Positions 3,678 to 42,905 of a stretch of DNA of 64,000 nucleotides are shown piece by piece. The DNA is from Thermaurantimonas sp. (GTDB taxonomy: Bacteria > Bacteroidota > Bacteroidia > Flavobacteriales > Schleiferiaceae), in assembly GCF_046299575.1 (NCBI RefSeq), contig NZ_JBKBHX010000006.1, forward strand, positions 105,565 to 169,564. The letters run 5' to 3'. How positions within the stretch are numbered: the stretch's first letter is position 1; each line of letters opens with the position of its first letter. The notes under the pieces are model-generated. The model had not been told where the DNA came from, did no database searches, and was given only the letters and a program-made list of their open reading frames with translations. The translations under genes were made by a program, and so were the position numbers.

Positions 3678-3688
3678 TGGATAGGCTA

Positions 3689-5877: not shown

Positions 5878-5889
5878 AAATTTACATGT

Positions 5890-6744: not shown

Positions 6745-8074
6745 TTTTTGCCCCTTCTTTTAACATTTTGTCGGCTATTCTCCAAGATTTAAAGACCTGC
6801 CAGCACACAAATGGAAAAAAAGGAAATACCAGTAAGCTACCAAACAAAAGCAAAATTGGTTGACGCTTAAATCGATATGGAATTAAAGAAGGAGGCACAC
6901 CTGTAAGTAAACTATGAATAGCAGCTTTATTTCCAAAATATTTTCTTGTAAGATACAACACACTCGGCACCGGCCTTGGTGCCAGCCAACTTTTTGGGCG
7001 GAAGCCATCCCAACTGCCCATTTGGCGAAGGCCACCTTCACCAACTTTTAAATGCAATCTTTTTGCGTAAGGATTAGACACATTTTTAAACCCTGCCAAA
7101 TAGGCTCTTAATCCAAATTCTCCATCCCCTTGTCTTTGTTTTTCAAATTGTCGATCAAATAGTCCCACTTTTTCAAAAACTCGGCGGTGAATCATCACAT
7201 TACCTGTATCTACCTGATCACCCCATCGAAAAAAACTGTAATTTTCCGGGATTTTGGCACCTACAGCAGAAATAGATACACCTGAAGATATTTCAGCATT
7301 AAAGTAATCCAGGCACTTAAGGTGTTGGCTGATCCAGTCGGGCGCTACACGAGAATCATCGTCAAAAAGCAGAAGATATTCCGCTCCCGATAATTTTATT
7401 GCTGTATTCCTCGCCAGCCACAAGGCTTTTTCCTCCTGCCGGATGAGTTTGAGGTCTAAATGAAACTGCTCATAAAATTCCGGCTGGAATGGCTCGGATT
7501 GATCCACAACGATGACCTCAAAGTTTTTGTAATATTGTTTTTCAAGATCATTTAGAGCATCTCTAAGATAGTGGTAGCGGTTTAGTGTGGGGATGATGAC
7601 CGAAACTTTTGGTGCACTTTTTAAAAGCCTGGATTCAAATTGTTGGAATGAATGTTCGTGAGGATAGACTTTTTCATATAAATCAATTCTCCTTACACGT
7701 AAATTTTTGATAAAAGCAGCAATTTCCTTTATTGGATTGTGTAATGTTAAAATGCGCAATGACAGAATATACCAACTCCAGAAAGGGTGAAAATATTTTC
7801 TGACAAAGCGATAATTATCACTTATAGTGGGCTTGATACCTTCAGTGTTTAGTTTTATGGTTGGATCTTGGAGTATAAAACCCTTGTTCCAGGCTTGGTA
7901 GGCGGCATCTATTTTGGTCACTTCGCGGCAACTATAGGCCAAGTCTAAGTTTAATAGAGTCTTATTACTGGTAGAAGACAACTTATCATAATCTGGGAAA
8001 TAAGGACAATCTCCTTCGTAAGGAAGATAATTATACCATACAGGCAATATGTATCTGATGAAAAGAAAAGGCAT
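6701..8074 (-). CDS. Glycosyltransferase family 2
   Basis: VSVIIPTLNRYHYLRDALNDLEKQYYKNFEVIVVDQS and LLLFDDDS (DXD-like) are GT2 hallmarks. There is a C-terminal hydrophobic tail. Confidence 0.8.
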   Translation of the reverse strand: MPFLFIRYILPVWYNYLPYEGDCPYFPDYDKLSSTSNKTLLNLDLAYSCREVTKIDAAYQAWNKGFILQDPTIKLNTEGIKPTISDNYRFVRKYFHPFWSWYILSLRILTLHNPIKEIAAFIKNLRVRRIDLYEKVYPHEHSFQQFESRLLKSAPKVSVIIPTLNRYHYLRDALNDLEKQYYKNFEVIVVDQSEPFQPEFYEQFHLDLKLIRQEEKALWLARNTAIKLSGAEYLLLFDDDSRVAPDWISQHLKCLDYFNAEISSGVSISAVGAKIPENYSFFRWGDQVDTGNVMIHRRVFEKVGLFDRQFEKQRQGDGEFGLRAYLAGFKNVSNPYAKRLHLKVGEGGLRQMGSWDGFRPKSWLAPRPVPSVLYLTRKYFGNKAAIHSLLTGVPPSLIPYRFKRQPILLLFGSLLVFPFFPFVCWQVFKSWRIADKMLKEGAKIEYLQQHEHNAQNP

Positions 8075-8140
8075 GTAGATGTACTCTAATAAAATTTAGA
8101 AAAGTTTTTTAGATGTTTGAATTAAAGAATAGCTGTGAAA

Positions 8141-9373
8141 TTACGAGTAAGAGCAAGTAGCTAAAGCATACTCATTAGCAAATATTCGACCTTGGCGTTC
8201 AAGTGTAAAATCCTTTAGAATTGTTTGGCGGGCCGACTGGCCAAGACGAAGTCGTAGCTCAAAAGATTGATAAAGCCGTGTAATAGCTTCTGCCAGTGCT
8301 GCAGGATTAAGAATAGGTACAATAAGCCCATTGTACTCATGAACAATAAGTTCTGACATCCCACCGGCGTCTGTACATACTATAGGCAGTTCCATTGCCA
8401 TTGCTTCCATTACGGCATTGCTTATTCCCTCGCTCAGGCTTGGGTGCACGAAAACTTGAGCCTGAGCAAGGAAATCACGTACGTGAAACTGATTTAGAGC
8501 ACCATGAAAGAACACGATCTCGCTTAAACCTAATTGATGGGCCAAAAACACTAACTTCTCTCGCTCTGGCCCTTCTCCTACTATATCAAGATGCAAATTC
8601 AAGTTCTTTTCATTCAAAATACGTATTGCTTGTATCAGTGTATCGAGTCCTTTTTTCCAGTGAAGACGTCCAACCGTTAAGATACGAAAAGGGATGCATC
8701 GCTCTTCATCTCGTTCCTTTTGCTGTTTAATTGTAGCATTATGGCCCTTTATAGGACTAAAGAGGGCTGGATCAATGGCAGGTCGATTAACGAATGCCTT
8801 AGAGCGGTCAAGCCCATAAGTCACACAAGTAGTGACCATATCGTCAGACACACAGTGCACGCGATCAACAACGTCGAATAACTCATTTAATTTTTTACGA
8901 CGTTCCAAGTCAAATAGTGGACGGATTTGTTCGGCATGTCCGCGACAACTCACATATAGTCTCGATTTTTTTTTTAAAAAGTTCATTAAAGGCAGATAAG
9001 CCACTCCGATACCTGAAAAAGAAAAATGTATTATATCAAAATTACAACCAGCGAAAGGGGTGTATAATTCCAAAATTTTAAAGCGATGTAATAAATCTGA
9101 ACATTTACATTGTCGCCATAATAAATAGAAACTTTCAAAATTTAGACAAAACGCGTAAATAATATGTAGGATGCGTTTAACTAAAGGATATGCAGAAGGT
9201 GCTGTCAGAACTCGTACTCGACCGATCAAATCTTGAGGAATTGATTCAGCCTGTTTTTTGTGAATTATAATTGTAACTTTGAAACCTAAGTCAGCCAATA
9301 AACGCACCTTGTTTACAATAAAAGACTCCGAGAGTGTTGGAAATGTATTAACGACAAGGGCTATACTGGTCAT
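8141..9373 (-). CDS. Glycosyltransferase family 4
   Basis: 410 aa. VFVHPSLSEGISNAVMEAMAMELPIVCTDAGGMSELI is the GT4 EX7E region. Confidence 0.8.
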   Translation of the reverse strand: MTSIALVVNTFPTLSESFIVNKVRLLADLGFKVTIIIHKKQAESIPQDLIGRVRVLTAPSAYPLVKRILHIIYAFCLNFESFYLLWRQCKCSDLLHRFKILELYTPFAGCNFDIIHFSFSGIGVAYLPLMNFLKKKSRLYVSCRGHAEQIRPLFDLERRKKLNELFDVVDRVHCVSDDMVTTCVTYGLDRSKAFVNRPAIDPALFSPIKGHNATIKQQKERDEERCIPFRILTVGRLHWKKGLDTLIQAIRILNEKNLNLHLDIVGEGPEREKLVFLAHQLGLSEIVFFHGALNQFHVRDFLAQAQVFVHPSLSEGISNAVMEAMAMELPIVCTDAGGMSELIVHEYNGLIVPILNPAALAEAITRLYQSFELRLRLGQSARQTILKDFTLERQGRIFANEYALATCSYS

Positions 9374-11259
9374 AATATGCTGTTTTGATAATCTTGACGA
9401 AGTTTATTGAGCCGCCGTTCATTCCACTCGAACAGAGTAAATACCGCCCATATTAACCACCCATTTTTCTCATTAGAACTGCTCTGCCAAAGCAATTCAA
9501 GTTGTTTTTTATCAAAATAATTATGCCATTGCGAAGGTAGTTCCAAAACACGCTCGCGAACGCGCTCGAGTAACAATCCATTAATCCAATCATCAATTGG
9601 CACTGTAAAACCTTTTTTAGGTAGCAAACTGAGTGATGCATCTCCATGCATTGAGGCAAATAAGTCTCTCAACGGTATTTTGCCGTGATATTTGCCAATA
9701 CACATATCGTACCTATAGTTTGTAGAAGCATCCAACATATCATTACTCAGCAGCGGTACTCTCACTTCTAAGCTGTGATACATGGAAGTTCGATCCACTT
9801 TGAGTAAAACGCGTTGCATATGCAAGTCAAATTCAATCTTTCGTTGCACATTCATCAAATCGCGTACATTGGATAGCGACAGTTCAGTCAGATCGTCTAC
9901 AATTTTTTTTAAAAAAAAAGGAGGTTCGGGTTGATGCTTGAAAATGCGACCTGCCCATTTTTTTGCTCCAGTGATAAAAATTTTATTATATACATATGTT
10001 GTAAAGTCCGGATATCTAAGCAGCTCTAGTGGTATAGATTCGCTAAGTGGGCTTATTTTGTTCCAACAAATTAGCGCTCGACGAGGCCATTTTTTTTTTA
10101 AAAAAATAGAAGCATAATTTACTGTGTATCGATTGCGCGGGTAGCCCCAAAACAATTCGTCGCCCCCGTCTCCCGACAGCGCAACAGTGATGCGTTCTTT
10201 GGCAAACTGAGCCAGCAGTAGCGCAGGAAGAGACGAATAATCAGCAAAAGGCTCAGAAAATGCCTCTGAATTTTGGCTAATTAAATTGAACAAAACATCG
10301 GATTCGTCTATTTTCCTTAGATGATGGCGCAAACCGAACGCACGAGCCACAGTATAAGCTTCATTTGACTCATCCATAAAGCCGCCCGAGGCGAGACCGA
10401 TAGTGTATGCCTCTAGATCCTGCCGCATACCAGATGCAGCAGCACTTACCAATGAAGAATCAATGCCACCTGACTGAAACACGCCTAAAGGCACATCACT
10501 TACTAATTGACTTTGTACCGATGCAGACAGCACTTCTTGGAGGTTTGGTATTGAGTATTCAGTAGCCAGCCGTTTCACCGGATAATTGTAGTAAGCGCTA
10601 AGTTTAAGTGAGCCATTCCGATCAACGATAAGGCTATGACCATGGGGTAGCAGAAACGTGTCCTTATACAACGCTTCGCCGTCAGGCACAAAACCGAGCC
10701 TTAGATAGTTAGCCAAAGCATCTGGATTTATCCTAAGGTTTTGAAAGTCTTCTTGGCATAACAGTAAATCATAATCTGAGCAAAATAACAAATGATTTTT
10801 GCTGACAGCATAGTAAAGCGGCTTTATACCGCTACGGTCGCGGGCTAGCGTCAGTGTTCCACTTTCTGCGTCATACCATGCCAAAGCAAACATTCCATCA
10901 AGCATAGGTAATGTCAACTCTATTCCCAACTGCAAGAGGCAATGCAGTAGAACTTCAGTATCAGAATGGGTACGAAATTTAACAGCAAATCTTAGACGAT
11001 TTTTAAGTTTTTCAGTATTATAAATCTCGCCATTGAATACAAGCATAAAACGCCCCGATGGATCCAACATGGGTTGATTTGCCGCTTCGCTTAAATCTCT
11101 TATAGCTAAACGCCTAAAGCCAAAAATTGCCTGACCAATCTCTGCATATCCTTCTGCGTCAGGACCACGTCGACGCATTTGTCCAGTAGCCCAACGCACA
11201 AAACGTTCGATTCCATGTTCACGTCTCCCAAAAGAAATAGCTCCGACGATCCCACACAT
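9370..11259 (-). CDS. Asparagine synthase (glutamine-hydrolysing)-like amidotransferase
   Basis: 629 aa. MCGIVGAISF (Cys2), NGEIYN, VFQSGGIDSS PP-loop and LSGDGGDELFWGY. Confidence 0.9.
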   Translation of the reverse strand: MCGIVGAISFGRREHGIERFVRWATGQMRRRGPDAEGYAEIGQAIFGFRRLAIRDLSEAANQPMLDPSGRFMLVFNGEIYNTEKLKNRLRFAVKFRTHSDTEVLLHCLLQLGIELTLPMLDGMFALAWYDAESGTLTLARDRSGIKPLYYAVSKNHLLFCSDYDLLLCQEDFQNLRINPDALANYLRLGFVPDGEALYKDTFLLPHGHSLIVDRNGSLKLSAYYNYPVKRLATEYSIPNLQEVLSASVQSQLVSDVPLGVFQSGGIDSSLVSAAASGMRQDLEAYTIGLASGGFMDESNEAYTVARAFGLRHHLRKIDESDVLFNLISQNSEAFSEPFADYSSLPALLLAQFAKERITVALSGDGGDELFWGYPRNRYTVNYASIFLKKKWPRRALICWNKISPLSESIPLELLRYPDFTTYVYNKIFITGAKKWAGRIFKHQPEPPFFLKKIVDDLTELSLSNVRDLMNVQRKIEFDLHMQRVLLKVDRTSMYHSLEVRVPLLSNDMLDASTNYRYDMCIGKYHGKIPLRDLFASMHGDASLSLLPKKGFTVPIDDWINGLLLERVRERVLELPSQWHNYFDKKQLELLWQSSSNEKNGWLIWAVFTLFEWNERRLNKLRQDYQNSIL

Positions 11260-30805: not shown

Positions 30806-33800
30806 TTATATTCTTACCGTTAATTGGTCTGCAAACAACTCTGCTTGTTTTAATACGGTATCAATTGCCTTTTGTTGTTTATCAGGTGGATAGCCATATT
30901 TATTCAGTGTGCGCTTTACGATTACCATGAGCCTTGCTCTGGCACTTTCTCTTATGGTCCAGTCTATGGTTGCATTGGCTCTTACTTTGTTGGCTATTTC
31001 TTTTGCTATTTCTTTTGAGGTCTCGTTACCTAATACCTGAACGGCACTGTCGTTTACTTCCAAAGCATTGTAAAATGCCACTTCATCGGGTGTGAGTCCG
31101 AGCTTTTCGCCTTCTTTATCGGCTTCTTTTATTTCTTTGGCTATATTGATGAGTTCCTGAATAATTTCAGCGGTTGTAAGTAAATTATTCTGATAGCGTT
31201 TGATCGCGCTTTCAAGCATTTCCAGCAATTTCTTGCTCTTTACCAGATTTGTTTTGGCTCTTACTTTCAGCTCGTTGTTCAGAATTTTTTTCAGCAACTC
31301 GATTGCTAAATTTTTGTGCTGCATTCCCTGAACTTCCAACAGAAATTCATCGGAAAGTATTTCCAATCCTGAAATATCGGGCTTCTGAATTCCCGCAGCA
31401 TCAAAAATGTCAATCACTTTATCGCTGCTCAATGCTTCATCCACAATTTGTTTGATGGCGGTTTCTATTTCCACATCTGATTTACCACCACCAACAGGAG
31501 CATCAAACTTTACCAATCTTGATTTAACGGCTTGAAAAAACGCCACTTCGGTCAGATGAGGCTGTACTTCTTCTTTGGTAATGCAAAGCGAAAGTGCCTG
31601 ACTTAATAAACTTACCTCACGAATAAACCTCTCTTTACCGTTCTGTAACCCTAAAATGTGTTCTTCTGCTTGCAGAATGATGGAGAGTTTTTCCCGTTCA
31701 TCTGCAACAAAAAATCGGCGGTAATTGAATTTGAAACTGCCTTCGTAATAGGCCTGTGGTTCTTCAACCAAAATATCATTCCGGGTATTGCTCTCTTCAT
31801 AGAACATTTGCTGCACCACTTCCAGTTTCTCTTTGAAAATATCAAATGCTTTTTCGATGTTTTCTGCCGGGTCGCCTTTTCCACCTGCTTCACCGTAAAA
31901 TGAAAGCGCTTTCTTTAAATCGGTTCCAATGCCCAAATAATCCACAATCAAACCGCCCGGTTTGTCTTTGAAAACACGGTTTACCCGTGCAATGGCTTGC
32001 ATCAGGTTGTGTCCTCGCATGGGCTTATCAACGTACATCGTATTCAGGCAAGGAGCATCAAAACCCGTAAGCCACATATCCCGAACAATTACCAACTTCA
32101 GCTCATCAGCCGGATTTTTCATGCGTTCGGCCAACATACGGCGTTGTTCTTTAGTGGTGTGGTGTTGGGCAATTTCGGGGCCGTCTGCACTATTGGTGGT
32201 CATGACTACTTTAATAACCCCTTTAGTCAAATCGTCATGGTGCCATTCCGGACGAAGTGCAATAATTTCTTTGTAGAGTTCGGCAGCAATTCTGCGGCTC
32301 ATGGCTACAATCATTGCCTTGCCTTCAAAAACAGCCTGGCGTTGCTCAAAATGCGAAACAATGTCCCGGGCTAAATTTTTCAAACGTTCCGGATGTCCCA
32401 CAATGGCTTCCAGCTTTGTCCATTTGGCTTTGGCTTTTTGACCACCCCACCCTTCGGGTACCCCTCCATCGGAGGGGAATTCTTGGTCTTGTTCTAATTC
32501 CCGGTCGAATTCTTCAATTAAGCGTCTGCCTTCTTCGTCCAGATTTACCTTTGCCAGGCGACTTTCATAATAAATGGGTACCGTTGCCCCATCATCTATG
32601 GCATCTTTTATATCGTAGCGGTCGATGTAATTGCCGAAAACCTGAGGGGTGTTTCTGTCTGTACCTTCAATAGGCGTACCTGTAAAACCAATGTAGGTGG
32701 CATTGGGTAAAGCATCGCGCATGTATTTGGCAAAGCCGTAAGCAATGCGTTTGCCGATGACTTCTTTGGTTACTGCGTCTTTTTCGTCAATCAATTTTGC
32801 TTCAAAGCCATATTGCGTTCGGTGGGCTTCGTCGGCAATTACTACAATATTTCTGCGGTCGGAAAGTTGGGGGAACTTATCGCCCGATTGAGGTAAAAAC
32901 TTCTGAATAGTGGTAAAAACAATGCCCCCACTTGCCACCTTCAATAGTTCTTTGAGATGCTCTCTGCTTTCGGCCTGCACAGGTTCTTGCCGCAGCAACT
33001 GAACCGATGCCGCAAACGTATCAAACAACTGGTCGTCTAAATCGTTGCGGTCGGTAATGACTACTATGGTTGGATTTTTCATTTCGGGCGAAGTGATGAG
33101 CTTGCCCGCATAAAAAACCATACTCAAACTTTTGCCCGAACCTTGGGTGTGCCAAACCACACCGCCCCGCTTATCTCCGTTTTCGGCTGATGCCTGTATG
33201 GTTGATTGAACGGCTTTATTGACGGCATAGTACTGATGATAGGCCGCTAATTTCTTAACGGTATGCACCTGGATCAATCCTGTTTTGGGGTCTTCTTTTT
33301 TCGTTTTTTCAAATACAATAAAGTTGCGAACCAAATCCAGCAGTGTGGCGGGTTGCAGCATACCTCTGAGCAGCGTTTCTAATTGTGGCTTAAACCGGGA
33401 GGCCTCTCTAATTCCGTCAACGGTTTTCCATGCCATAAAACGCGAAAAATCGGCACTTACGGTGCCTGCTCTGCATTCCAGGCCATCGGAAATAATACAG
33501 ATAGCATTGTATGTGAATAAGCTGGGAATAGTGGCTTTGTAGGTTTGTATTTGCTGATACGCACTTTTGATGTCGGCCGTTTCGCTGGCGGCATTTTTCA
33601 GTTCTATGACTACCAAAGGCAAACCATTGACAAACAGCAACACATCGGGGCGTTTGTGCTGGTTGTTTTCAATAATGGTGTATTGATTTACTACTAAAAA
33701 TTGATTATTGGCCGGATGCTCAAAGTCAATCAATGCCACTTCGTGGCTGCGTTCATAGCCGTTTTCCTGATAGGGTACTTTTACCTTTTCAACCAGCAAG

Positions 33801-34105
33801 CGGTGAAATTCTTCGTTGTTGTGCAGCAAGTCAGGCGAAGCAATCCTTAACACTTTTTGAACAGCTGCTTCCTGTGCATCTAAGGGAATGTGCGGATTGA
33901 TTTTAGCAATGGCAGTTCTCAGCCGATTGAGCAAAAGAATTTGATTGAAACTTTCTCTTTCGTTACCACCCCGTACTTCGGACACCCCTCCGGAGGAGGG
34001 GAATTCGGGGGGAGAACAGGCAGAGCCCGGCAAGTATTCCCAGCCCTGCGATTGCAGAATTTCAATTGCTGACTGTTCGATGATATTTTCGGATAGAATA
34101 TTCAT
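30806..34105 (-). CDS. hsdR: Type I restriction enzyme R subunit
   Basis: 1099 aa. WHTQGSGKSLSMVF (helicase motif I), VVIADEAHRTQYG (DEAH), GFTGTPI, and the C-terminal HsdR domain. Its start ATG (34105..34103) overlaps the stop of the upstream gene (ATGA). Confidence 0.95.
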   Translation of the reverse strand: MNILSENIIEQSAIEILQSQGWEYLPGSACSPPEFPSSGGVSEVRGGNERESFNQILLLNRLRTAIAKINPHIPLDAQEAAVQKVLRIASPDLLHNNEEFHRLLVEKVKVPYQENGYERSHEVALIDFEHPANNQFLVVNQYTIIENNQHKRPDVLLFVNGLPLVVIELKNAASETADIKSAYQQIQTYKATIPSLFTYNAICIISDGLECRAGTVSADFSRFMAWKTVDGIREASRFKPQLETLLRGMLQPATLLDLVRNFIVFEKTKKEDPKTGLIQVHTVKKLAAYHQYYAVNKAVQSTIQASAENGDKRGGVVWHTQGSGKSLSMVFYAGKLITSPEMKNPTIVVITDRNDLDDQLFDTFAASVQLLRQEPVQAESREHLKELLKVASGGIVFTTIQKFLPQSGDKFPQLSDRRNIVVIADEAHRTQYGFEAKLIDEKDAVTKEVIGKRIAYGFAKYMRDALPNATYIGFTGTPIEGTDRNTPQVFGNYIDRYDIKDAIDDGATVPIYYESRLAKVNLDEEGRRLIEEFDRELEQDQEFPSDGGVPEGWGGQKAKAKWTKLEAIVGHPERLKNLARDIVSHFEQRQAVFEGKAMIVAMSRRIAAELYKEIIALRPEWHHDDLTKGVIKVVMTTNSADGPEIAQHHTTKEQRRMLAERMKNPADELKLVIVRDMWLTGFDAPCLNTMYVDKPMRGHNLMQAIARVNRVFKDKPGGLIVDYLGIGTDLKKALSFYGEAGGKGDPAENIEKAFDIFKEKLEVVQQMFYEESNTRNDILVEEPQAYYEGSFKFNYRRFFVADEREKLSIILQAEEHILGLQNGKERFIREVSLLSQALSLCITKEEVQPHLTEVAFFQAVKSRLVKFDAPVGGGKSDVEIETAIKQIVDEALSSDKVIDIFDAAGIQKPDISGLEILSDEFLLEVQGMQHKNLAIELLKKILNNELKVRAKTNLVKSKKLLEMLESAIKRYQNNLLTTAEIIQELINIAKEIKEADKEGEKLGLTPDEVAFYNALEVNDSAVQVLGNETSKEIAKEIANKVRANATIDWTIRESARARLMVIVKRTLNKYGYPPDKQQKAIDTVLKQAELFADQLTVRI
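32442..32482. repeat. 41-nt palindrome-containing element inserted in frame in hsdR (encodes EFPSDGGVPEGWGG)
   Basis: CCACCCC ACCC TTCGG GTA CCCCTCC ATC GGAGGGG AATTC. It contains a 7-bp-arm palindrome and is a near copy of 33966..34006. Confidence 0.8.
33966..34006. repeat. 41-nt palindrome-containing element inserted in frame in hsdR (encodes EFPSSGGVSEVRGG)
   Basis: CCACCCC GTAC TTCGG ACA CCCCTCC GGA GGAGGGG AATTC. Same orientation and same reading frame as the 32442..32482 copy. Confidence 0.8.
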
Positions 34106-36852
34106 TTATTCAGATGATATTTATTTTTTCTTCTTTGAAAAGCAATTTTCCCACCCTCAAGGATATTACAAACCGCAGTATTTATTACAGGATTTTCTAA
34201 TGAACCGCTGTCATAAGATAGTTTTTCTTCGTTGTTTGTTGCAACAATGACCTGTTCAGCGTCTGCATTTACTACAAGGTTTGCATTATGAGTTACAATT
34301 ATAACTTGCCTGTATTTCTTTATTTCTTTGAAAATATCAGTAAGGTCATTAAAGATAAAATCGTTATCAAGATCATCTTCGGGTTGGTCGAAAATAATAG
34401 GTTGAGAAAAAATATTTGTAGCTAATTTTAAGCACAAATAAATAGTTCCTCTCTGACCTACTGAGATTTTATTCAAAGGTTTTCCTTTATAAGTGATTTT
34501 GGGCTGAACATATAAATATTTAGAACGGGATTGAAGATCATAAAATATTTTTTCAAACTCATATCTGTTAGAACGTAAATAATTTTCAATTTTTTGAAAA
34601 GATGTATCAATGTTTCTCAGAAAATCAAGGTAATTCTCTAAATCGATAATTCCAACTAATCCTTTCAGTTCTTCATAACTGTTTTTTCCTTTGAAAATTC
34701 TGCCGTCTAACTGTTCTTTTACGAGGTCGTAAAATGCATTTATATCAAAAACTATTTCTCCCTCAATCTTGATTTCTCTGTTGTTAATAATTTTTTTCAT
34801 TAATTCCTTTTGCTGCTCATTCCAACCCTCTTTTCCTTGTAGAAGCCTACTCCAGCTTTGATCAATTGTAGATTTATGACGTAATAATTCCGAATAAATT
34901 AAATCAGCTATTTTCTTTTTATTGTTAAGAGCTGATTTTCGTTGGTTTTCTTTCTCTTCTATTTCTTTCTTTCGTCTTTCGTAAGATGAAATGGTGTGTC
35001 TGAACCGTTCTACATTTGAAAGCAGGGAGGCTATATCCCCTTTATAGTCCTTAAAATCGTTTTTAATTTTTGCATTTTCTTCTTGAGCTTCTTTTATTGT
35101 ATCGTCAATATTTTTAATAGCAGCATCAATACCATCAATTTGTGGTTTAAAATCTAATAAGGGAATACCCTTGTTTAGTTTAGTAATTTGTTCGTTTGTT
35201 TTTTGTAGAAATTCAGTTAGAGATGTTTTGAGTTGCTCTAAACTGAGTTTTTCGCTTTCACAGTCTTGCAGTTTTTCAATGTTTGCTGTATACTTTTGTA
35301 GTTTTTCTTTATTTTCCTCTGTTGTAATCCTATCTAATAAATTACGATTTTTATCTATTTCCTGCTGAATATAAGATTTCTGGTTTATAGGATTATTATT
35401 TTCATCCCGCTTGTTAAACCATTCCAGAATAGTATTAAATTCGGATCTATAATTCTGGATAGTTTCATCAATTTTCTGGTCAAATGAAAGCGTTTCAAGT
35501 TCCAAAATCTTCTTAATTTCCTCTCCCAATCCTTTTGCATCTTTTACCTTCTCTTTCACTTCACTTTGGGATATAAAAAGAAAGGGTAAATCGTACTGAG
35601 TATCCAATGGAAAAGTCTCATCCGTGCTATTAAGTGATTTTTTCCATTTTACTTTAAAATCTGATGATAGATTAAATTCAGATTTTTCAAAAGGAACATT
35701 GTATTGTTTAAACCCGTTTGCAAAATAGTTTATCAAAACACTTTTACCGGCTCCTCGTCCTCCAATAATTGTTACTAAGTTCTGATTTAATGGGATTCTG
35801 TTTTTCTCAAATTGTAATTGCTCATTCTCGAATACATTTACAGGATTTTCAATTTCAATTTCTGTAAAGGCAGATTTTTCAAAGTCATATGCTGGGTTAG
35901 TATTCTGTATTTTTACCCTTTCTTCCGGCTCATAAATGATTTGCTTTAGCCCTTCGAAAGTAAGATCTGATTTTATCCAAACTTTTCTATCTTGATTCTT
36001 TGTAAATAACTCATCAAATGTATGCGCATCACTTCCTCCAATACATGCTTTTAAACTTTTAAATTCATTAATGAAGTCTTCCGAAGAAGGATGTTTTTTG
36101 CCTAAAGCCCATTGTATAGTATTGGGGTTTGTAGCAATTAAAATGTCAGATTTCTGAATAAGTAATTTTCTTGCCTGATGATCCTGACCATTCCACGAAA
36201 CATTGCTTAAATCTTCATCAGAGGGCAAGGCAATTAGATATTTGCCTTCAAAGATGTTGCGTTTATTTGCAAGAATTTCACATATCTGTTTGTCATCAAC
36301 AACTGCATTCATCATTCCAATATACAAAGGTGATTTACCTTTGAATTGTGTGTGTTGCTCAATTAATTTTTCACCTAATTTTTCTAGATTATTTTTTTTC
36401 AATTTTCGCTTTTCATCTTCACTCTGTGGGGCGGCCTCATAAATAAAATCAATTTCATGCAGGAAATTTTCCTCAATATCAGTAAAAGAAATATCGTCAG
36501 ATAGTAAGACATGAAAGTTTATTCTATTGGAACCCACCAGTTTGTTAAGTCGAAATTCTATGTTCGGCAAGACGTAAATTGATTTGATCTTCTCAATTTC
36601 TTCTGAGTTAAAAAGCTCTTTTAATTTATCTTCTTTTTCAAAATACTCAGTCTTTATCTTCTTATAACCGTCAATTGTGAAATAGTCGGTTATTCCGATA
36701 GCTGAAACATTGTTTGCAATGGCTCTTTTAAATAATTCTTTTACATAAGTATCCCAATCGTTTCCAAAGCCATTATATAAATGAGAATATGGGGTGTGAA
36801 TATGCAAATCCCATAATCTCCATTCTGAACCTCTTTTAAAATTTTCTTTCAT
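34102..36852 (-). CDS. PHP-domain phosphoesterase fused to a coiled-coil ABC/SMC-like ATPase (Ppl-like architecture), embedded between hsdS and hsdR
   Basis: 916 aa. The N-terminal PHP motifs are WDLHIHTPYS, PNIEF, NFHVLL and IGGSDAH. Then come Walker A (IIGGRGAGKSVLINY), about 400 aa of K/E-rich heptad-like sequence, a signature-like ISVGQRGTIYLCL, Walker B/D-loop (QPIIFDQPEDDLD) and an H-loop (VIIVTHNANL). Confidence 0.8.
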   Translation of the reverse strand: MKENFKRGSEWRLWDLHIHTPYSHLYNGFGNDWDTYVKELFKRAIANNVSAIGITDYFTIDGYKKIKTEYFEKEDKLKELFNSEEIEKIKSIYVLPNIEFRLNKLVGSNRINFHVLLSDDISFTDIEENFLHEIDFIYEAAPQSEDEKRKLKKNNLEKLGEKLIEQHTQFKGKSPLYIGMMNAVVDDKQICEILANKRNIFEGKYLIALPSDEDLSNVSWNGQDHQARKLLIQKSDILIATNPNTIQWALGKKHPSSEDFINEFKSLKACIGGSDAHTFDELFTKNQDRKVWIKSDLTFEGLKQIIYEPEERVKIQNTNPAYDFEKSAFTEIEIENPVNVFENEQLQFEKNRIPLNQNLVTIIGGRGAGKSVLINYFANGFKQYNVPFEKSEFNLSSDFKVKWKKSLNSTDETFPLDTQYDLPFLFISQSEVKEKVKDAKGLGEEIKKILELETLSFDQKIDETIQNYRSEFNTILEWFNKRDENNNPINQKSYIQQEIDKNRNLLDRITTEENKEKLQKYTANIEKLQDCESEKLSLEQLKTSLTEFLQKTNEQITKLNKGIPLLDFKPQIDGIDAAIKNIDDTIKEAQEENAKIKNDFKDYKGDIASLLSNVERFRHTISSYERRKKEIEEKENQRKSALNNKKKIADLIYSELLRHKSTIDQSWSRLLQGKEGWNEQQKELMKKIINNREIKIEGEIVFDINAFYDLVKEQLDGRIFKGKNSYEELKGLVGIIDLENYLDFLRNIDTSFQKIENYLRSNRYEFEKIFYDLQSRSKYLYVQPKITYKGKPLNKISVGQRGTIYLCLKLATNIFSQPIIFDQPEDDLDNDFIFNDLTDIFKEIKKYRQVIIVTHNANLVVNADAEQVIVATNNEEKLSYDSGSLENPVINTAVCNILEGGKIAFQRRKNKYHLNK

Positions 36853-36867
36853 ATTGCCTTTCTGATT

Positions 36868-37968
36868 TTAACTCTTCACTCTTATTTCCCCGCTCATCAG
36901 CTTCGGCAGCAGCGTATCCCGCAACTGCGTAAGCGTGCGAATTTGCTGGGTGTTGGATTTGATTTTTTGGAAAAGGGGTTCAATTTCTTTATCAAAGTGC
37001 TTTATCTTTTCCTTTGGGGGAATAAGAAAATCCAGTGTTCTGAATGCTGCCTTTGAAATCTCTTGAAATACAGAACCGTTTCCTGCATTTTCTATCATTT
37101 CCATATTAGCCTTACACCACAAAAACATAAAATAGTTTGAAACGATTTTGTCGCATATAATTGCGATATACCCTTGATTGATGGCAACAGGAATTTCAGT
37201 TATAGCTAAATATCCAATAGGTGCTCTTGATGAAAGCAATAAAGTGCCAACAGGCAGAAGTCCAGAACTTATTTGCTTTAAACCTTCTTCTGTGATTTTG
37301 CGTGATGTGTCAAAAAGAAATATGGAAGTTGTGTTTGATAAATCTCTTGGAGAAGTCCAATGAATATTACCATCCCAATATTTCTGTTCTGTTGTGCTCG
37401 GTGTTGTTCCGCCTTTCATTGAAACAACATCATCAATAGTTCCAACCTCCCAACTCTCATCTGCTTCTTCTATGAACCACTGCCTGAAGAGGGTTTCAGC
37501 TAATTGCTCTAAGGTTTTGTTTTGGCGGTGCAGCAGGTCTATTTTGTCGTCTAAGCTGCTGAGTACTTCGGCTATGGCGGTTTGTATTTTTACATCATCC
37601 GTAATTGAAATATCTATTGAATTGAGTAAAGTTTGAGTTACAAGTGGGTGACTTGAACCCTCAGCATAACTGTTTAAATCTAAATTCCTCAAGAAATAAT
37701 ATAGAAACTTGGCATTGTACCCATTCTTTGGTTTTGCTGCTAATGCATTATCTGAAACCCAAATAGGTTTATCTTGATAATAAACAGAACCACAATAAGC
37801 ACCAACTCGCCCAATTATTATTGTTTCCCCATTGTAATTTGAACTATCACAATAACCTAAAATCCCGTTTCCACCAAACACGGGTATATCCCCTTTTGTT
37901 TTTGGTCTTTCCTTGCCATTTCCAAACTGAACAAATTCTGATAGTTTATATTCTTTCCACTCACTCAT
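36868..37968 (-). CDS. hsdS: Type I restriction-modification specificity subunit
   Basis: 366 aa. Two target-recognition halves are separated by the conserved spacer LDDKIDLLHRQNKTLEQLAETLFRQWF, and the C-terminus has the matching repeat IRTLTQLRDTLLPKLMSGEIRV. Confidence 0.9.
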   Translation of the reverse strand: MSEWKEYKLSEFVQFGNGKERPKTKGDIPVFGGNGILGYCDSSNYNGETIIIGRVGAYCGSVYYQDKPIWVSDNALAAKPKNGYNAKFLYYFLRNLDLNSYAEGSSHPLVTQTLLNSIDISITDDVKIQTAIAEVLSSLDDKIDLLHRQNKTLEQLAETLFRQWFIEEADESWEVGTIDDVVSMKGGTTPSTTEQKYWDGNIHWTSPRDLSNTTSIFLFDTSRKITEEGLKQISSGLLPVGTLLLSSRAPIGYLAITEIPVAINQGYIAIICDKIVSNYFMFLWCKANMEMIENAGNGSVFQEISKAAFRTLDFLIPPKEKIKHFDKEIEPLFQKIKSNTQQIRTLTQLRDTLLPKLMSGEIRVKS

Positions 37969-38029: not shown

Positions 38030-38821
38030 TTACGCTGCTTGTTTTAATTTAGCAATGTTTTCGGGGGCATGCCTTTCGGTCCAAAGAATAAAATCGGCAT
38101 TTTTGCTACGCAAAGCGTCTAAGTATTCTTGCTGTATTTCTTTTTCTTCGTTATTGATTATAGCCAGTCCTATTACTTGTTTGTTGGTAATTTTTTCTCT
38201 TACGCTTTTAATATCCTCCCAGGTAAAAAGAAAATTGGGTATATTCAGTTTATTTAGAGTATTGAATGCTTTCAAAACAATTTCTTTCTCGCGGTAGGCA
38301 ATTTGAAAATCGAAAGTAAATTCCAGTCCTGTGCTTCCTTTAGAAATAAATTGGGGGGTGTAAATAATTTCTTGTTCGTCAAGATAATTGCGTACATCTT
38401 CTTTAAAGATAGAAGCAACGGTGTGCTTGGCGAGCATATACATATCGTTAATTTCAGAAATGGCGGAAATGAGATTATGTTTTTTCTGAGCGAAGTTATT
38501 TTCAGTGGCTTCTACAATTAACTCATCATTTTGTAATTGTATGCCATAGGTGAGTAAAATCCGTTCGAGCAAATCTTTTCGTTTAGGCGAACGAGTAATA
38601 GCCGCCCCTGTTAGTTCAAGATTTTTGAGCGTAATTCCATCATCGGACATAAGAATTTTGCCATTGTCTTTTTTGGCGTAAATTTCTAATGTATCATTAA
38701 ACAAGCCAATGAAAGGCGTGCTGATGACTGCCCAATTCGTACCTGTATCGGTTACAATGGTTGTACGTTCTTTCAAAAAATCGTAATATTTATTGATAAG
38801 TTCGTTTATCCAATGGTTCAT
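38030..38821 (-). CDS. Uncharacterised protein (263 aa); possibly DUF1828/DUF1829-type (recollection only)
   Basis: The start ATG overlaps the upstream stop (ATGA, 38821..38818). No catalytic motif recognised. The length and the N-terminal pattern (INELINKYYDFLKERTTIV...ISTPF...DTLEIY...DDG.T...L) resemble DUF1828+DUF1829 proteins as I remember them. I have not verified this. Confidence 0.55.
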   Translation of the reverse strand: MNHWINELINKYYDFLKERTTIVTDTGTNWAVISTPFIGLFNDTLEIYAKKDNGKILMSDDGITLKNLELTGAAITRSPKRKDLLERILLTYGIQLQNDELIVEATENNFAQKKHNLISAISEINDMYMLAKHTVASIFKEDVRNYLDEQEIIYTPQFISKGSTGLEFTFDFQIAYREKEIVLKAFNTLNKLNIPNFLFTWEDIKSVREKITNKQVIGLAIINNEEKEIQQEYLDALRSKNADFILWTERHAPENIAKLKQAA

Positions 38822-39345
38822 AGAAGTGAAGGTTGCAGTATGTTAAAAACAGTTTGCAAATGAATTAATTTGTTGAATGAAAAAAATGCCTGCTCAATAT
38901 CGTTATTGTTTGAGATAGTTTTCACGGGAAAACTATCCTCGGTTAATGGCAAAGCCCAATCTAAGGTAGTTTTATATCCTTCCACATAATAATGAATGTG
39001 ATGTTCGTGATAATCGAAAAACTTACCTGCAAAAGGATGAAAAATTTCAGGAACTTTGGGTGTAATTGTTTCGGGGTTTTTGTGTTGTCCGTTATAGTCT
39101 ATCCTTATCAGTCCAATTTTAGTGTCATCATCAAGCAGATATAACGTAAGTTTGAAATGATTTTTCTTGCTTTGGGTTATATCATAGATAAATGTGAAAT
39201 CGGTATTATCAGGCGAAATAAGCGTATATCTTACCGTAAATGGAAATGGTTGTTGATGGATTTCAATTTTATCTTCCAATACACCATTCATTTCTACTTT
39301 TTTTGGTAATTCTAAAAGATATTGTGCTTGTTGTATCGAGAACAT
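38818..39345 (-). CDS. Uncharacterised protein (175 aa), His-rich C-terminal half
   Basis: The ORF is translationally coupled to orf263. It contains IRIDYNGQHKNPE ... FHPFAGKFFDYHEHHIHYYVEGY. I recognise no family. Confidence 0.5.
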   Translation of the reverse strand: MFSIQQAQYLLELPKKVEMNGVLEDKIEIHQQPFPFTVRYTLISPDNTDFTFIYDITQSKKNHFKLTLYLLDDDTKIGLIRIDYNGQHKNPETITPKVPEIFHPFAGKFFDYHEHHIHYYVEGYKTTLDWALPLTEDSFPVKTISNNNDIEQAFFSFNKLIHLQTVFNILQPSLL

Positions 39346-39469: not shown

Positions 39470-39916
39470 TTAATCAGTGCTGCCTTCGGGATCCTCAGGC
39501 AGCATTTGGGGAGTTTTATTATCGCTGCCTTCGAGTGCCTCAGGCAGCGGCACCTCAGGGTGGCTGAGGTTCTCGAAGCCACCCTGAGTGTTCTCGAAGC
39601 CACCCTGAGTGTTCTCGAGCTCACCCTTTTTTAAGTCACGATAAGCAAGCGCTAATTGCGGAAGTAATTCCGGTGTTCCATTTATCAACGCTTCTTTCTT
39701 CTTCCGGCTCCAACCCTGCACTTGCTTTTCGCGATAAAATGCTTCGTCAATGCGTGCATATTCCTCAAAATATACCAGCTTCACGGGTAATCTTTTCCTG
39801 GTATGATTCGCCCCTTCACCCGCCTGATGTTGAGCCAATCGCAGTTCAAGATTGGTAGTACTGCCGGTATAGTAACTGCCGTCAGCGCATTCTAATATGT
39901 ACATGTATCCTTTCAT
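39470..39916 (-). CDS. GIY-YIG nuclease family protein (core about 95 aa) with a repeat-encoded C-terminal extension
   Basis: GYMYILECADGSYYTGSTTNLELRLAQHQAG...RLPVKLVYFEEY...A...REKQVQGWSRKKKEALI is the small GIY-YIG (URI) domain. The last 50 aa or so (ENTQGGFENTQGGFENLSHPEV...) are translated from the hairpin/tandem repeats at 39479..39628. Confidence 0.85.
   Translation of the reverse strand: MKGYMYILECADGSYYTGSTTNLELRLAQHQAGEGANHTRKRLPVKLVYFEEYARIDEAFYREKQVQGWSRKKKEALINGTPELLPQLALAYRDLKKGELENTQGGFENTQGGFENLSHPEVPLPEALEGSDNKTPQMLPEDPEGSTD
39479..39628. repeat. Array of three stem-loops sharing a 13-nt loop, plus three 21-nt tandem units
   Basis: 39479..39503 is GCTGCC-TTCGGGATCCTCA-GGCAGC. 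39524..39548 is GCTGCC-TTCGAGTGCCTCA-GGCAGC. 39556..39586 is CAGGGTGGC-TGAGGTTCTCGAA-GCCACCCTG. 21-nt units start at 39566, 39587 and 39608. Confidence 0.85.
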
Positions 39917-39947
39917 ACTTTCATCTATGACGGGGGCTTCGGCTATT

Positions 39948-39978
39948 CAGGGTGGCTTCGAGAACCTCAGCCACCCTG
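39948..39978. repeat. 31-nt stem-loop, the exact reverse complement of 39556..39586
   Basis: CAGGGTGGC-TTCGAGAACCTCA-GCCACCCTG. Together with 39556..39586 it brackets the GIY-YIG core ORF as a perfect 31-nt inverted repeat. Confidence 0.85.
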
Positions 39979-40008: not shown

Positions 40009-41622
40009 TCAGCCCTCATGTATGTTTATTTTAGATAAATTAGCCATGATTCTATCATTCAATTCTTTCTCTTCCTGCATTTGTTTTTCCAGTTCGGCTT
40101 TGAGGGAAGCGAAGCGTTCGGCAAAGTTGAAGTCGTCTTCTTCTTCCGGTAGCCCCACGTAGCGGCCGGGTGTTAAGGCATAGTTTAGTGCTCTGACTTC
40201 CTCAATGGTTGCACTTTTGCAAAAGCCCTGAATGTCTTGGTAAGCTCCGCCTTCGACAGGCTCAGGCATCGCTTCGGCCGGCTCAGGCATCGCATTCCAA
40301 CGATGGTAAGTTTGGGCAATTTTTTGTATGTCGGCATTGCTAAGTTCACGGGTTCTGCGGTTAATCAAATGACCCATATTGCGGGCATCGATAAAAAGGA
40401 TTTGCCCTTTTCGGTTTTCACTTTTCTTTTTTCGTATAAACCAAAGGCAAGCAGGTATTTGCGTATTCAAAAACAATTTAGTGGGCAGGTTCACAATGCA
40501 GTCAATCAAATCGGCATCAACCAGGGCCTTGCGAATTTCGAATTCACCGCCCGCATTGCTGGTTAGCGAGCCTTTGGAAAGCACAAAGCCGGCCCTTCCG
40601 TTGGGAGCGAGATGATAGAGGAAGTGCTGTATCCAGGCATAGTTGGCATTGCCTGCCGGAGGAACCCCATACACCCATCGCGGGTCGTTTTTAAGCAATT
40701 CGCCACTCCAGTCGCTATCGTTAAAGGGCGGATTGGCAATGATAAAATCGGCTTTAAGGTCTTTGTGGGCATCGTTTAAAAAACTGCCTTCGTTGTTCCA
40801 TTTCACATTGCTGCTGTCGATGCCACGTATGGCAAGGTTCATTTTGCAGAGCCGCCAGGTGGTTTGGTTGCTTTCCTGTCCGTAAATAGAGATACGGTCT
40901 GATGGATTAAGCTGTAATTTTCTTCCGTTGTTTTTTTTGTAATAATCCTGATGGGCTTTAATAAATTTTTCGCTTTGTACAAACATGCCCCCGCTTCCAC
41001 AGCAAGGGTCAAATACCCTGCCTTCATAAGGTTCGAGCATTTCTACCAAAAGTTTTACTACACTTTCAGGCGTATAGAACTGACCTCCTTTCTTGCCTTC
41101 TGCCAGGGCAAATTGCCCCAGGAAGTATTCGTACACTCTGCCCAGAATATCTTTGGCTTGGGCTTCTTTAGTGCCCAGTGTTGCGGTACTAATCAGGTCA
41201 ATAAGTCCGCCCAGGCTGGTTTTGTCTAATTTTTCCTGTGCATATACTTTGGGCAAAACGCCTTTCAAAGAGGGGTTGTCTTTTTCTATGGCATCCATGG
41301 CATCGTCAATGTCTTTGCCAATGGAGGGCAGTTTTGCTCTGCCTTGCAGCCACGACCAACGAGCAGAAGGCGGCACATAAAACACTTTCTCGGCGACATA
41401 TTCATTTTTGTCTTCGGGGTCGGCTCCTTCATAGTCGCCTTTGCCTTCTTTCAGTTTGTGGTAAAGTTCTTCGAAAGCATCGGAGATGTATTTTAGGAAA
41501 ATAAGCCCTAAAACCACATGTTTGTATTCGGCTGCATCCATGTTTTTACGGAGCTTGTCAGCCGCTTTCCAGAGTTTTTTCTCCAAGGATTCTTCTGCTA
41601 TTTCTTTTGCTTTTTTGGCCAT
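40009..41622 (-). CDS. hsdM: Type I restriction-modification N6-adenine DNA methyltransferase subunit
   Basis: 537 aa. N-terminal HsdM domain ([32 protein letters not shown]), [12 protein letters not shown] (motif I) and IIANPPFN (motif IV). Confidence 0.95.
40251..40292. repeat. Two 21-nt tandem units inside hsdM (encode [14 protein letters not shown])
   Basis: CTTCGACAGGCTCAGGCATCG (40251..40271) and CTTCGGCCGGCTCAGGCATCG (40272..40292). The core TTCGRNNGGCTCA resembles the loops of the GIY-YIG-flanking hairpins. Confidence 0.8.
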
Positions 41623-41905: not shown

Positions 41906-42905
41906 TCACCTGTCAGAATGGTTTATTTTTTTCTTAATTATAAGTTGTCTGTATGTTGTTGTCAGGTCGTCTTTTACAATTGCTGTCAATGGTTTAAAAC
42001 GGTATAAAGGTCTGCAATTGTTAGGATTTTTAGCATTGAACTTGATTTGAAGCACAAAACTTTTGGCTACCACTGAAATGTAATCGAAGGACGAAACCCC
42101 GAATTGCAAATGTGCTTTATTGTACAATTTTTATCATTTTCGAGGTCTCTCATTGGTGAAGAATAAGTCGTAAAGTTCATGCAGTTCAGGCTTTATACTG
42201 TCAAACAGTTTTTTTAGTTTCTTTAATATTTATAGATGCCACTTCAGGAAAAATTCTCTTCAAATGTTTTATCTTCTTTATATAGTCTGGATAATAAAAT
42301 TTCACCTATCTGCCATTAAATTCATTTATTTCAATGAGTGGCCAGAGATATTCATATGCATTCCACGTTGGAGTTTTTCGAACTTTTCTTATAACACTGT
42401 CTTTTGGGATGGCAGGATTCACCCTATTTTGAATGTAACCTTCTATTGTAAACCATTCTTTCGGTAAAAATCATATGTGCAAGTTGTTTTTCTACAACTA
42501 GTCTGGCACCTTTATTTCTTTTTTCAAGTTCAACTGCTCGAAACAATACATCGCTATTGGGAATCTGCTTGACAAAGTTTTTTAGATCAAATATTGGGTC
42601 AATCGTCAACTGTCCATAAACTATCGCACCGCGCAATAAAAGGTTATTTTGAAATAAGATAGAATAGAGATATCCTAAGTGTATAAGTGTCGAGCTTAAA
42701 ATTGTCCCTGTAATAAAAATTTCACCCCCCCAAAAATATACATTAAAATCGAGCTTAATCTTTCAATGCGCTTTTTGTGACCAGAGACGAAAAGAGCTTG
42801 GATTTTTACCTGTTATAGGATAATTCAATTCTTTTAAAATGACATTTATCGATATGAATCTTACCAATTTTTCATAAAAAATTCGTACTCATTAACATCG
42901 CTCAT
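41906..42905 (-). pseudogene. Decayed gene of unknown family (about 330 codons with frameshifts and in-frame stops)
   Basis: Hand translation of the minus strand gives MSDVNEYEFFMKNW, a frameshift, VRFISINVILKELNYPITGKNPSSFRLWSQKAH, an in-frame TGA, KIKLDFNVYFWGGEIFITG...LLLRGAIVYGQLTIDPIF...AHMIFTE, a frameshift, WFTIEGYIQNRVNPAIPKD...EINEFNGR, a TAG, VKFYYPDYIKK..., a frameshift, FDSIKPELHELYDLFF... Only short fragments appear in the ORF track. Confidence 0.4.

Follow-up and report, generated by a model that had tools for sequence, protein, structure and literature searches.

A PDC-M24 gene pair nested in a type I restriction-modification operon of Thermaurantimonas: a candidate two-protein nuclease-based defence cassette

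We analysed two overlapping genes, here called A and B, that lie between hsdM and hsdS in a type I restriction-modification (R-M) operon of Thermaurantimonas sp. The genes come from a window of 64,000 nucleotides (nt) of contig NZ_JBKBHX010000006.1 (assembly GCF_046299575.1, positions 105,565 to 169,564 of the forward strand), and all coordinates without a locus number are positions in this window. The pair is an instance of PDC-M24, a family already catalogued as a phage defence candidate, and nothing sets it apart from that family. Weighing sequence, predicted structure and genomic context together, we hold with moderate confidence that A and B form an autonomous two-protein nuclease-based defence cassette that is co-expressed with the R-M system. 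Beyond the catalogue entry, the analysis adds the near-universal ATGA coupling of the two genes, the range of host systems in which they reside, a predicted nuclease fold with candidate residues for the DUF1829 domain of B, the lack of a detected structural relative for the DUF6978 protein A, and a pattern of gene decay that is biased towards A.

Family membership and conservation of the pair

On every criterion that can be computed, the pair belongs to PDC-M24. Using the PADLOC models, A matched PDC-M24A (PDLC04537) at E 9.4e-61, with residues 1–171 aligned to positions 1–163 of the 166-position profile, and B matched PDC-M24B (PDLC04539) at E 1.6e-99, with residues 4–253 aligned to positions 3–249 of 255. 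Both proteins are therefore matched over their full length, and the genes are adjacent, on the same strand and in the order A then B, as PDC-M24 requires. Their embedding in type I R-M is the criterion by which the family was discovered, and the Thermaurantimonas metagenome-assembled genome (MAG) provides a new instance of it. The PDCs are 145 ‘phage defence candidates’ compiled by collecting genes that lie embedded within BREX, DISARM and type I R-M loci, with mobility-associated families filtered out before naming (Payne et al., 10.1101/2024.01.29.577857). In supplementary file 8 of that work the cassette FAM_00129>>FAM_00065 carries the entry ‘Assign as candidate PDC-M24’, reached through guilt-by-embedding, and the family sits in PADLOC-DB v2 by prediction, as a candidate only (Payne et al., 10.1101/2024.01.29.577857).

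In Pfam, A is a member of DUF6978 (PF22398, E 2.9e-19), although an earlier note made from the sequence alone had recognised no family for it, and B comprises DUF1828 (PF08861, E 5e-26) followed by DUF1829 (PF08862, E 3e-21), as that note had correctly proposed. B also matched the PHROG family phrog_5059 (E 3e-70), and in PHROGs both proteins fall only in families of unknown function. NCBIfam holds no model for either protein, and when A, B and their alignments were run against the PDB in sequence and profile searches, only chance matches came back. The note's description of the pair as uncharacterised is thus right in that no function has been established, and wrong in that both proteins are in Pfam and the pair is already named in PADLOC-DB v2. 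Homologues in the database (101 for A, down to E 2e-113, and 979 for B) demonstrate that the two are real genes rather than chance open reading frames (ORFs); the 100% matches of A and B were from a Thermaurantimonas sp. MAG.

Among proteins carrying one of these domains, DS-6B of HipAD alone has been validated by experiment; it combines DUF3037 with DUF1829 and is proposed to be the antitoxin-like, DNA-binding partner of a HipA-type kinase (PMC13092281). HipAD (DefensePredictor DS-6) resembles the present pair in being a two-gene system, there with validated defence activity, in which the DUF1829 protein has its partner encoded immediately upstream. The systems differ in that partner, a HipA-like kinase as opposed to a DUF6978 protein, and in the N-terminal domain of the DUF1829 protein, which is DUF3037 in DS-6B and DUF1828 here. 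Two Staphylococcus aureus proteins are possible tractable homologues: the DUF6978 protein Q2FXA9, which is reported to be down-regulated under ciprofloxacin, and the DUF1828 protein Q7A4X2, which flanks a prophage integration site (bioRxiv 10.64898/2026.05.15.725322, PMC10821479).

The stop codon of A (TGA, 38820–38818) and the start codon of B (ATG, 38821–38819) overlap within the tetranucleotide ATGA (sequence cttcacttctATGAaccattgg); the ORF list and the sequence agree with the coordinates, sizes and ATGA overlap that the earlier note had given. To follow this arrangement across the family, we gathered 111 loci. Searching with A gave 17 of them, in species-representative genomes, and searching with B gave 80 on metagenome contigs and one on a viral contig, while 13 came from exact-protein look-ups (L018–L030). 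Scanning these with hidden Markov models (HMMs) of A and B gave 95 non-redundant B genes. Wherever at least about 190 nt of upstream sequence was available, A lay directly 5' of B on the same strand (89 of 89 loci), and the six loci of the 95 that lacked A were each cut by a contig end. The overlap was exactly 4 nt in 82 of the 89, so that the coupling persists across phyla, and B lay immediately downstream of A in all 17 loci found through A. The translationally coupled pair that the earlier note had described is thus conserved as a unit across these loci.

The two proteins evolve at different rates: in all 67 loci compared, A was less conserved than B, averaging 48% identity to its window counterpart against 66% for B. 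The A family is small, falling into 301 clusters when 1.84e9 representatives are grouped at 50% identity; the best 150 of these 301 are 67–225 amino acids (aa) long, mostly about 165–190 aa, and none of them is a larger fusion. Comparison of A with B by hhalign showed the two to be unrelated, which rules out an origin by domain duplication.

Predicted structures and candidate active sites

The AlphaFold2 (AF2) model of B has a predicted local distance difference test (pLDDT) score of 86 and comprises two domains, whose undefined mutual orientation accounts for a predicted template modelling (pTM) score of 0.51. The N-terminal DUF1828 domain is a helix with an antiparallel β-meander and carries two conserved motifs, T35-P-F..F41-N-D43 and S59-D-D-G62-x-T64; it probably binds DNA, a ligand or a partner, or acts as a sensor. 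Beyond a long helix (residues 110–149), the C-terminal part has an α-β-β-β-α-β core, formed by helix 110–149, strands 155–161, 167–175 and 179–186, helix 193–212 and strand 215–222, with pLDDT values of 84–94 across the block. Foldseek searches of the PDB with B returned PD-(D/E)xK nucleases as all of the top matches, with probabilities up to 1.00 and VC1899 as the best (E 2.5e-4). The others included the restriction-like endonuclease of the R2 retrotransposon, Can2, Card1, Cdn1, AF1548 and Bax1, and also the small subunit of R.BspD6I, BstEII, and the arenavirus L and bunyavirus cap-snatching endonucleases. On the strength of the model, then, the DUF1829 domain of B has a PD-(D/E)xK nuclease fold.

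Within this predicted fold, several residues vary hardly or not at all among close family members: E141 and D142 on helix 1, D171 and Q173 on strand 2, and E180 and K184 on strand 3. To judge from the alternation of hydrophobic and polar positions, D171, Q173, E180 and K184 would share one face of the hairpin. Given the non-canonical E-x3-K spacing, catalytic competence of B as a nuclease is no more than likely.

Can2, Card1, VC1899 and Cdn1 are the best structural matches of B and, like it, place an N-terminal regulatory domain before a C-terminal PD-(D/E)xK nuclease. The TM-scores against these CARF nucleases are about 0.3 and arise from the nuclease domain alone. In Can2 and Card1 the N-terminal domain is a Rossmann-like CARF domain, in contrast with the antiparallel β-meander of DUF1828, and because the topology of DUF1828 is not Rossmann-like, the likeness is architectural only. 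A CARF assignment for the N-terminal domain of B was rejected on this topology, on the absence of a Pfam CARF match at E ≤ 0.1, and on the absence of a cyclic-nucleotide context; neither type III CRISPR nor cyclic-nucleotide synthase genes were seen in the annotated neighbourhoods of the pair loci.

Protein A was modelled with a pLDDT of 94.5 and a pTM of 0.90 as a small α+β protein, and its N-terminal half is rich in β-strands, as had been proposed from the sequence. Foldseek searches of the PDB and BFVD revealed no structural relative (best E 0.35–0.54, TM-scores below 0.3). An alignment of 63 sequences defined a conserved core of A, R81-x-D83-x-x-G86-x-H88-x-N90-P91 ... H116-I-H118-Y-Y ... 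W130-A-x-P133, in which R81, D83, H88, N90, H116, H118, Y119, Y120, W130 and P133 are invariant or at least 90% conserved. H103, H113 and H115 are not conserved, and so the histidine cluster that the earlier note had singled out is borne out for H88, H116 and H118 and not for these other three. The H-x-N and H-x-H elements persist in distant PDC-M24A partners from prophage Lj965 and from Staphylococcus and Acetobacter plasmids (A profile E 2e-5 to 7e-4), and in the distant prophage and plasmid partners only about 10 residues separate the one from the other. Since two histidines alternate on a strand and a third lies nearby, the His/Asn cluster of A suggests a metal site.

Known folds were considered for this putative site and set aside. 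For an HNH or His-Me finger nuclease, neither the PDB nor BFVD gave such a Foldseek match, Pfam gave only DUF6978, and the order H-x-N...H-x-H does not fit. HIT and 2H-phosphoesterase folds were dropped since Foldseek against the PDB and BFVD gave no match to them.

Genomic settings, mobility and decay of gene A

The neighbourhoods of the pair were compared in 31 unique loci flanked by 3 kb or more on each side, in which R-M genes were screened by phmmer. Type I R-M genes flank the pair on both sides in 16 of these loci and on one side in two more. Three gene orders occur, M-AB-S-R (as in the window), R-AB-S-M and M-S-AB-R, and within R-M operons the pair invariably takes an internal position, with hsdS or hsdR following it directly. 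In about 20 of 31 embedded cases, with start-codon calls that are approximate, the stop codon of B overlaps the R-M gene that follows or comes no more than 20 nt before it. The pair is also found with two other classes of R-M enzyme, between the methylase (mod) and res genes of a type III system in L008 and directly after a Type ISP enzyme in L006. Overall, the pair is strongly associated with R-M and defence loci.

Other defence genes accompany the pair elsewhere. In L018, on a contig of 1.65 Mb, a 1528-aa Avs2 gene (an antiviral STAND NTPase, 5383–9969, PADLOC E = 0) lies immediately upstream and is co-directional, and in L007 an AAA_15 ATPase and a type IIG fragment lie close by. PADLOC applied to 118 neighbours from 13 loci without type I R-M identified PsyrA, ShosA, Old/GajA/PtuA-type ATPases, other PDCs and an R-M methylase. 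In L014, L057, L065, L109 and L020 the neighbours are housekeeping genes only. In L003 the pair stands behind a second, divergent A-B-like pair. This tandem (1728–2956 and 3447–4771) consists of a 159-aa protein and a 250-aa protein in which DUF1828 is joined to a different C-terminal domain, followed by canonical A-B, and is preceded by a gene that encodes a type III restriction endonuclease domain; it hints at the swapping of effector domains on DUF1828.

The nested arrangement has a known counterpart in PrrC of EcoprrI, and in RloC, where an extra nuclease-type gene is likewise nested in type I R-M; the M-S-AB-R order puts the pair in the slot of prrC, and the logic of a second layer co-expressed with R-M would be the same. 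There is no homology between them, and PrrC is a single protein, an ABC-ATPase with an anticodon nuclease, that depends physically on EcoprrI. PrrC is also almost exclusively embedded, whereas A-B is embedded in type I R-M in 16 of 31 loci, stands solo in about one third to one half, and occurs with three R-M classes.

Several observations bear on the mobility of the pair. Solo loci are interleaved with embedded ones when B is placed in a neighbour-joining tree, and the nearest relatives of the window protein come from both M-AB-S-R and R-AB-S-M operons. Identities are discordant between B and hsdM: B is 83–85% identical where hsdM is 28–61% (83% and 28% in L034) and 59–66% identical where hsdM is 81–83% (66% and 83% in L061), which indicates that the cassette moves between unrelated R-M backbones. 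The distribution across phyla is patchy. No terminal repeats, integrase or transposase were found travelling with the pair in the loci inspected.

More distant relatives of B (25–37% identity) are carried by temperate phages, satellites and plasmids of Firmicutes. One such pair, Ljo_0292/Ljo_0291 of Lactobacillus prophage Lj965 (PDC-M24A and PDC-M24B at E 4e-21 and 1e-70), lies in the lysogeny module, with repressor and metalloprotease genes on one side and superinfection-exclusion and integrase genes on the other. The scan of viral contigs gave a single locus (L111), which suggests that the close subfamily is not typically phage-borne.

Gene decay falls unequally on the two genes. A is interrupted and B is full length in L004, L012, L013, L014, L017, the L025-type loci, L036, L065 and L097, while B is broken only in L105; among the 17 loci found through A, five had a broken A and none a broken B. 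In the L025 allele, E122 of A is changed from GAA to TAA (L025:9846–9848), and the accompanying B protein is present on 23 contigs from independent assemblies, making this a naturally circulating A-null variant. The TAA allele occurs in L025–L030 and L050, which are Ignavibacteriaceae from anaerobic digester metagenomes in which B, hsdS and the rest are intact. Through the coupling, a stop in A may silence B.

Frameshifts in A cluster at HMM positions of about 50–66 (L004:10140–10223; L013:1299–1362, an A10 run; L014:9973–10041; L036:1942–2004), which correspond to the A-rich Q58-S-K-K-N62 codons. This tract could be a slippage hot spot, a phase-variable switch for the pair or an assembly artefact. 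Since four frameshifts fall in the one tract, slippage or phase variation explains part of the A-biased decay, and the excess of broken A genes was accordingly tempered as proof that A is toxic. The loss of A while B stays intact argues against A as an antitoxin that restrains a toxic B. A type II antitoxin role for A, which the earlier note had raised in proposing a toxin-antitoxin-like module, was rejected as a poor fit for this reason and for the absence of a helix-turn-helix (HTH), ribbon-helix-helix (RHH) or AbrB fold in A.

In the window, hsdM, a GIY-YIG ORF, A, B, hsdS, a TrlF-family gene and hsdR form a co-directional string (Table 1). The placement between hsdM and hsdS reported in the earlier note is correct; its remark that no gene is expected there is outdated, as nested genes are documented (PrrC; Payne et al., 10.1101/2024.01.29.577857) and this one operon has four. 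A terminator scan found no terminator-like site on the minus strand from the hsdM stop (40009) to hsdS, consistent with a single operon, and a promoter-like site (a sigma-70-like match) is present 5' of hsdM at 41965..41937, from a scan whose models do not include Bacteroidota promoters. The GC content is 30–36% in TrlF, hsdS, A and B, against 45–47% in hsdM and hsdR.

Table 1. Features of the A-B pair and its operon, in window coordinates
Feature	Coordinates	Strand	Basis or remarks
Gene A	39345..38818	minus	175 aa ORF; DUF6978 / PADLOC PDC-M24A
A-rich tract of A, codons Q58-S-K-K-N62	39160..39174	minus	Frameshift site in relatives
Conserved core of A, residues 81–133; putative metal/active site	38947..39105	minus	63-sequence alignment
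ATGA stop/start overlap of A and B	38821..38818	minus	Translational coupling
Gene B	38821..38030	minus	263 aa ORF; DUF1828 + DUF1829 / PADLOC PDC-M24B
N-terminal DUF1828 domain of B, residues 1–108	38498..38821	minus	AF2: helix and antiparallel β-meander
Long helix 110–149 and DUF1829 domain 150–263 of B	38033..38494	minus	AF2 and Foldseek
hsdM, first gene of the operon	41622..40009	minus	HsdM_N + N6_Mtase, E 1e-111
GIY-YIG ORF, between hsdM and A	39916..39470	minus	Pfam GIY-YIG, E 9e-19
hsdS, 61 nt 3' of B	37968..36868	minus	Methylase_S, E 5e-48
TrlF-family PHP + AAA-like ATPase, 916 aa, between hsdS and hsdR	36852..34102	minus	NCBIfam NF045780, E 1.2e-159
hsdR	34105..30806	minus	Translation; 52–82% identity to hsdR of related loci

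The TrlF gene is a second embedded defence-type gene of the same operon and is related to the anti-phage protein Ppl. Its 3' end overlaps the start of hsdR by 4 nt, and TrlF also follows hsdS in L011 and L058. The GIY-YIG ORF is flanked by a perfect 32-nt inverted repeat (39556–39587 and 39947–39978), each arm of which is hairpin-like, and its reading frame runs on across the 3' arm into tandem repeats of 21 nt that give it an ‘ENTQGGF ENTQGGF’ tail. It is probably a separate small repeat-bounded element inserted in the operon; GIY-YIG genes accompany A-B or R-M genes also in L032, L015 and L097. GC-rich in-frame repeats, about 42 nt and 21 nt long, occur in hsdR (32441–32482 and 33965–34006) and hsdM (40251–40292), one kind of which encodes the peptide ‘EFPSxGGVxExxGG’, and these look like short palindromic insertions tolerated within coding sequence.

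Explanations for the pair and their implications

In the reading that we favour, A and B would be made together, in a fixed ratio, through the ATGA coupling. B would be the effector, with its predicted DUF1829 PD-(D/E)xK nuclease on a 40-residue helix and DUF1828 above it. A would be a fast-evolving small partner, probably metal-binding to judge from its conserved residues, that senses or controls or that serves as a second catalytic subunit, and it is probably not a passive antitoxin. Slotted repeatedly into R-M operons upstream of hsdS or hsdR, the cassette would be co-transcribed with them and would bring a second, mechanistically different nucleic-acid attack to bear on phages that escape or inhibit restriction. 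The solo loci and the prophage lysogeny modules indicate that the cassette works alone. The evidence for a cassette-type defence role is contextual and strong in kind, drawing on three R-M classes, Avs2, prophages, mobility and the discordance in GC content; from it we infer a nuclease activity, a physical A-B complex, a trigger and an anti-phage phenotype. None of the outcomes that the earlier note had named as counting against its proposal (a lack of co-conservation, a lack of defence enrichment, a mundane structural match) was found.

The following points weigh against a defence cassette. The candidate residues of B are spaced as D-x8-E-x3-K, compared with the canonical (D/E)-x-K, and in distant members E180 or K184 is replaced by T, N or Q, so that some or all members could be non-catalytic. 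About one third of the well-flanked loci have housekeeping neighbours only. In about 10% of loci A is disrupted, by nonsense mutations, frameshifts or deletions, while B stays intact, meaning that A is dispensable or that these loci are dead. A literature search covering PDC-M24, DUF6978, DUF1828/1829, HipAD and TrlF found no experimental test of the pair, and in two studies other PDCs gave mixed outcomes when tested, some showing no defence.

The pair could instead be a modification-dependent restriction system of the type IV kind, in which B joins an N-terminal reader to a PD-(D/E)xK cutter in the manner of Mrr and MspJI and A is a specificity or activating subunit. Such a system would cut hypermodified phage DNA directly and complement methyl-sensitive R-M, with no need of abortive infection or immunity. 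The two-domain architecture of B with its predicted C-terminal PD-(D/E)xK fold suits this proposal, as does the habitual occurrence of the pair within or next to loci of type I, type III and Type ISP, for type IV enzymes classically neighbour R-M loci, as in the immigration control region of E. coli. Intact B without A, seen in several loci, would also be tolerable if unmodified host DNA were unharmed. We nevertheless consider it unlikely, since B showed no similarity to the Mrr, MspJI, McrB/C or GmrSD models of Pfam, NCBIfam and PADLOC, and DUF1828 has no assigned function. Mrr and MspJI are moreover single proteins without an obligate small partner, and nothing corresponding to the strictly conserved A exists among known type IV enzymes.

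A toxin-antitoxin or abortive infection module in reverse order, with A as a toxic metal-dependent enzyme and B as its neutraliser and DNA-binding regulator, seems to us slightly less probable again. In its favour are the tight coupling of the ORFs, the catalytic-looking histidine cluster of A and the presence of DUF1829 in DS-6B, for which binding to DNA and to the toxin partner has been predicted (PMC13092281). Decay is likewise as expected of a toxin, with A broken in five and B in none of the 17 loci found through A and a nonsense allele on 23 contigs, although a mutational hot spot in one A-rich tract accounts for part of this asymmetry. Against it, B keeps invariant nuclease-type residues, A is unlike any known toxin fold in the PDB and BFVD by Foldseek, and Pfam detected no HTH or RHH autoregulator domain in the pair.

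We regard as improbable a role for A and B as accessories of their host R-M system, whether in its assembly, in restriction alleviation, in hsdS expression or as an extra cleavage module for the translocating enzyme. Within R-M operons the constant internal position directly 5' of hsdS or hsdR, the often overlapping stop and start codons and the AB-hsdS order common to M-AB-S-R and R-AB-S-M all speak for it, but A-B is likewise found with enzymes of type III and Type ISP, neither of which has a subunit in common with type I, as well as solo among housekeeping genes and in R-M-free prophage lysogeny modules, and it has been swapped between unrelated hsdM families. A selfish mobile cassette that lives off R-M operons and brings the host no advantage, for instance a nuclease of the homing type plus a helper, is very improbable in our judgement. 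The patchy distribution across phyla, the phylogeny discordant with the host R-M, the GC content below that of hsdM and hsdR and the predicted nuclease fold of B would be explained by it; yet there are no accompanying terminal repeats, integrase or transposase, and mobility-associated families had been removed by Payne et al. before PDCs were named. Both ORFs have also been kept, and kept coupled, over wide divergence, and their precise operonic fit downstream argues for a host-level function.

A more elaborate form of the defence reading is also conceivable, and we put it forward only tentatively, as an improbable case. Here A would be the first example of a new fold of small metal-dependent enzyme; it would sense infection or failed restriction and, through DUF1828, switch on the B nuclease, signalling by direct binding or by making a small molecule. 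The result would be a sensor-effector module built of parts unrelated to CARF/Can2, CBASS and Thoeris. Temperate phages would carry it, and restriction operons of type I, type III and Type ISP would repeatedly have taken it up as a back-up.

Genes nested in R-M operons are a productive source of new immune mechanisms, and PDC-M24 is a seemingly still-unprobed candidate among them, for which tractable relatives are at hand in Lactobacillus prophage Lj965 and in staphylococcal elements. If the pair does not defend, it would make a useful negative control for guilt-by-embedding. If it does, it would be a new two-protein nuclease system, probably with a protein fold new to prokaryotic immunity, and would help to explain R-M operons as landing pads for second-line defences.

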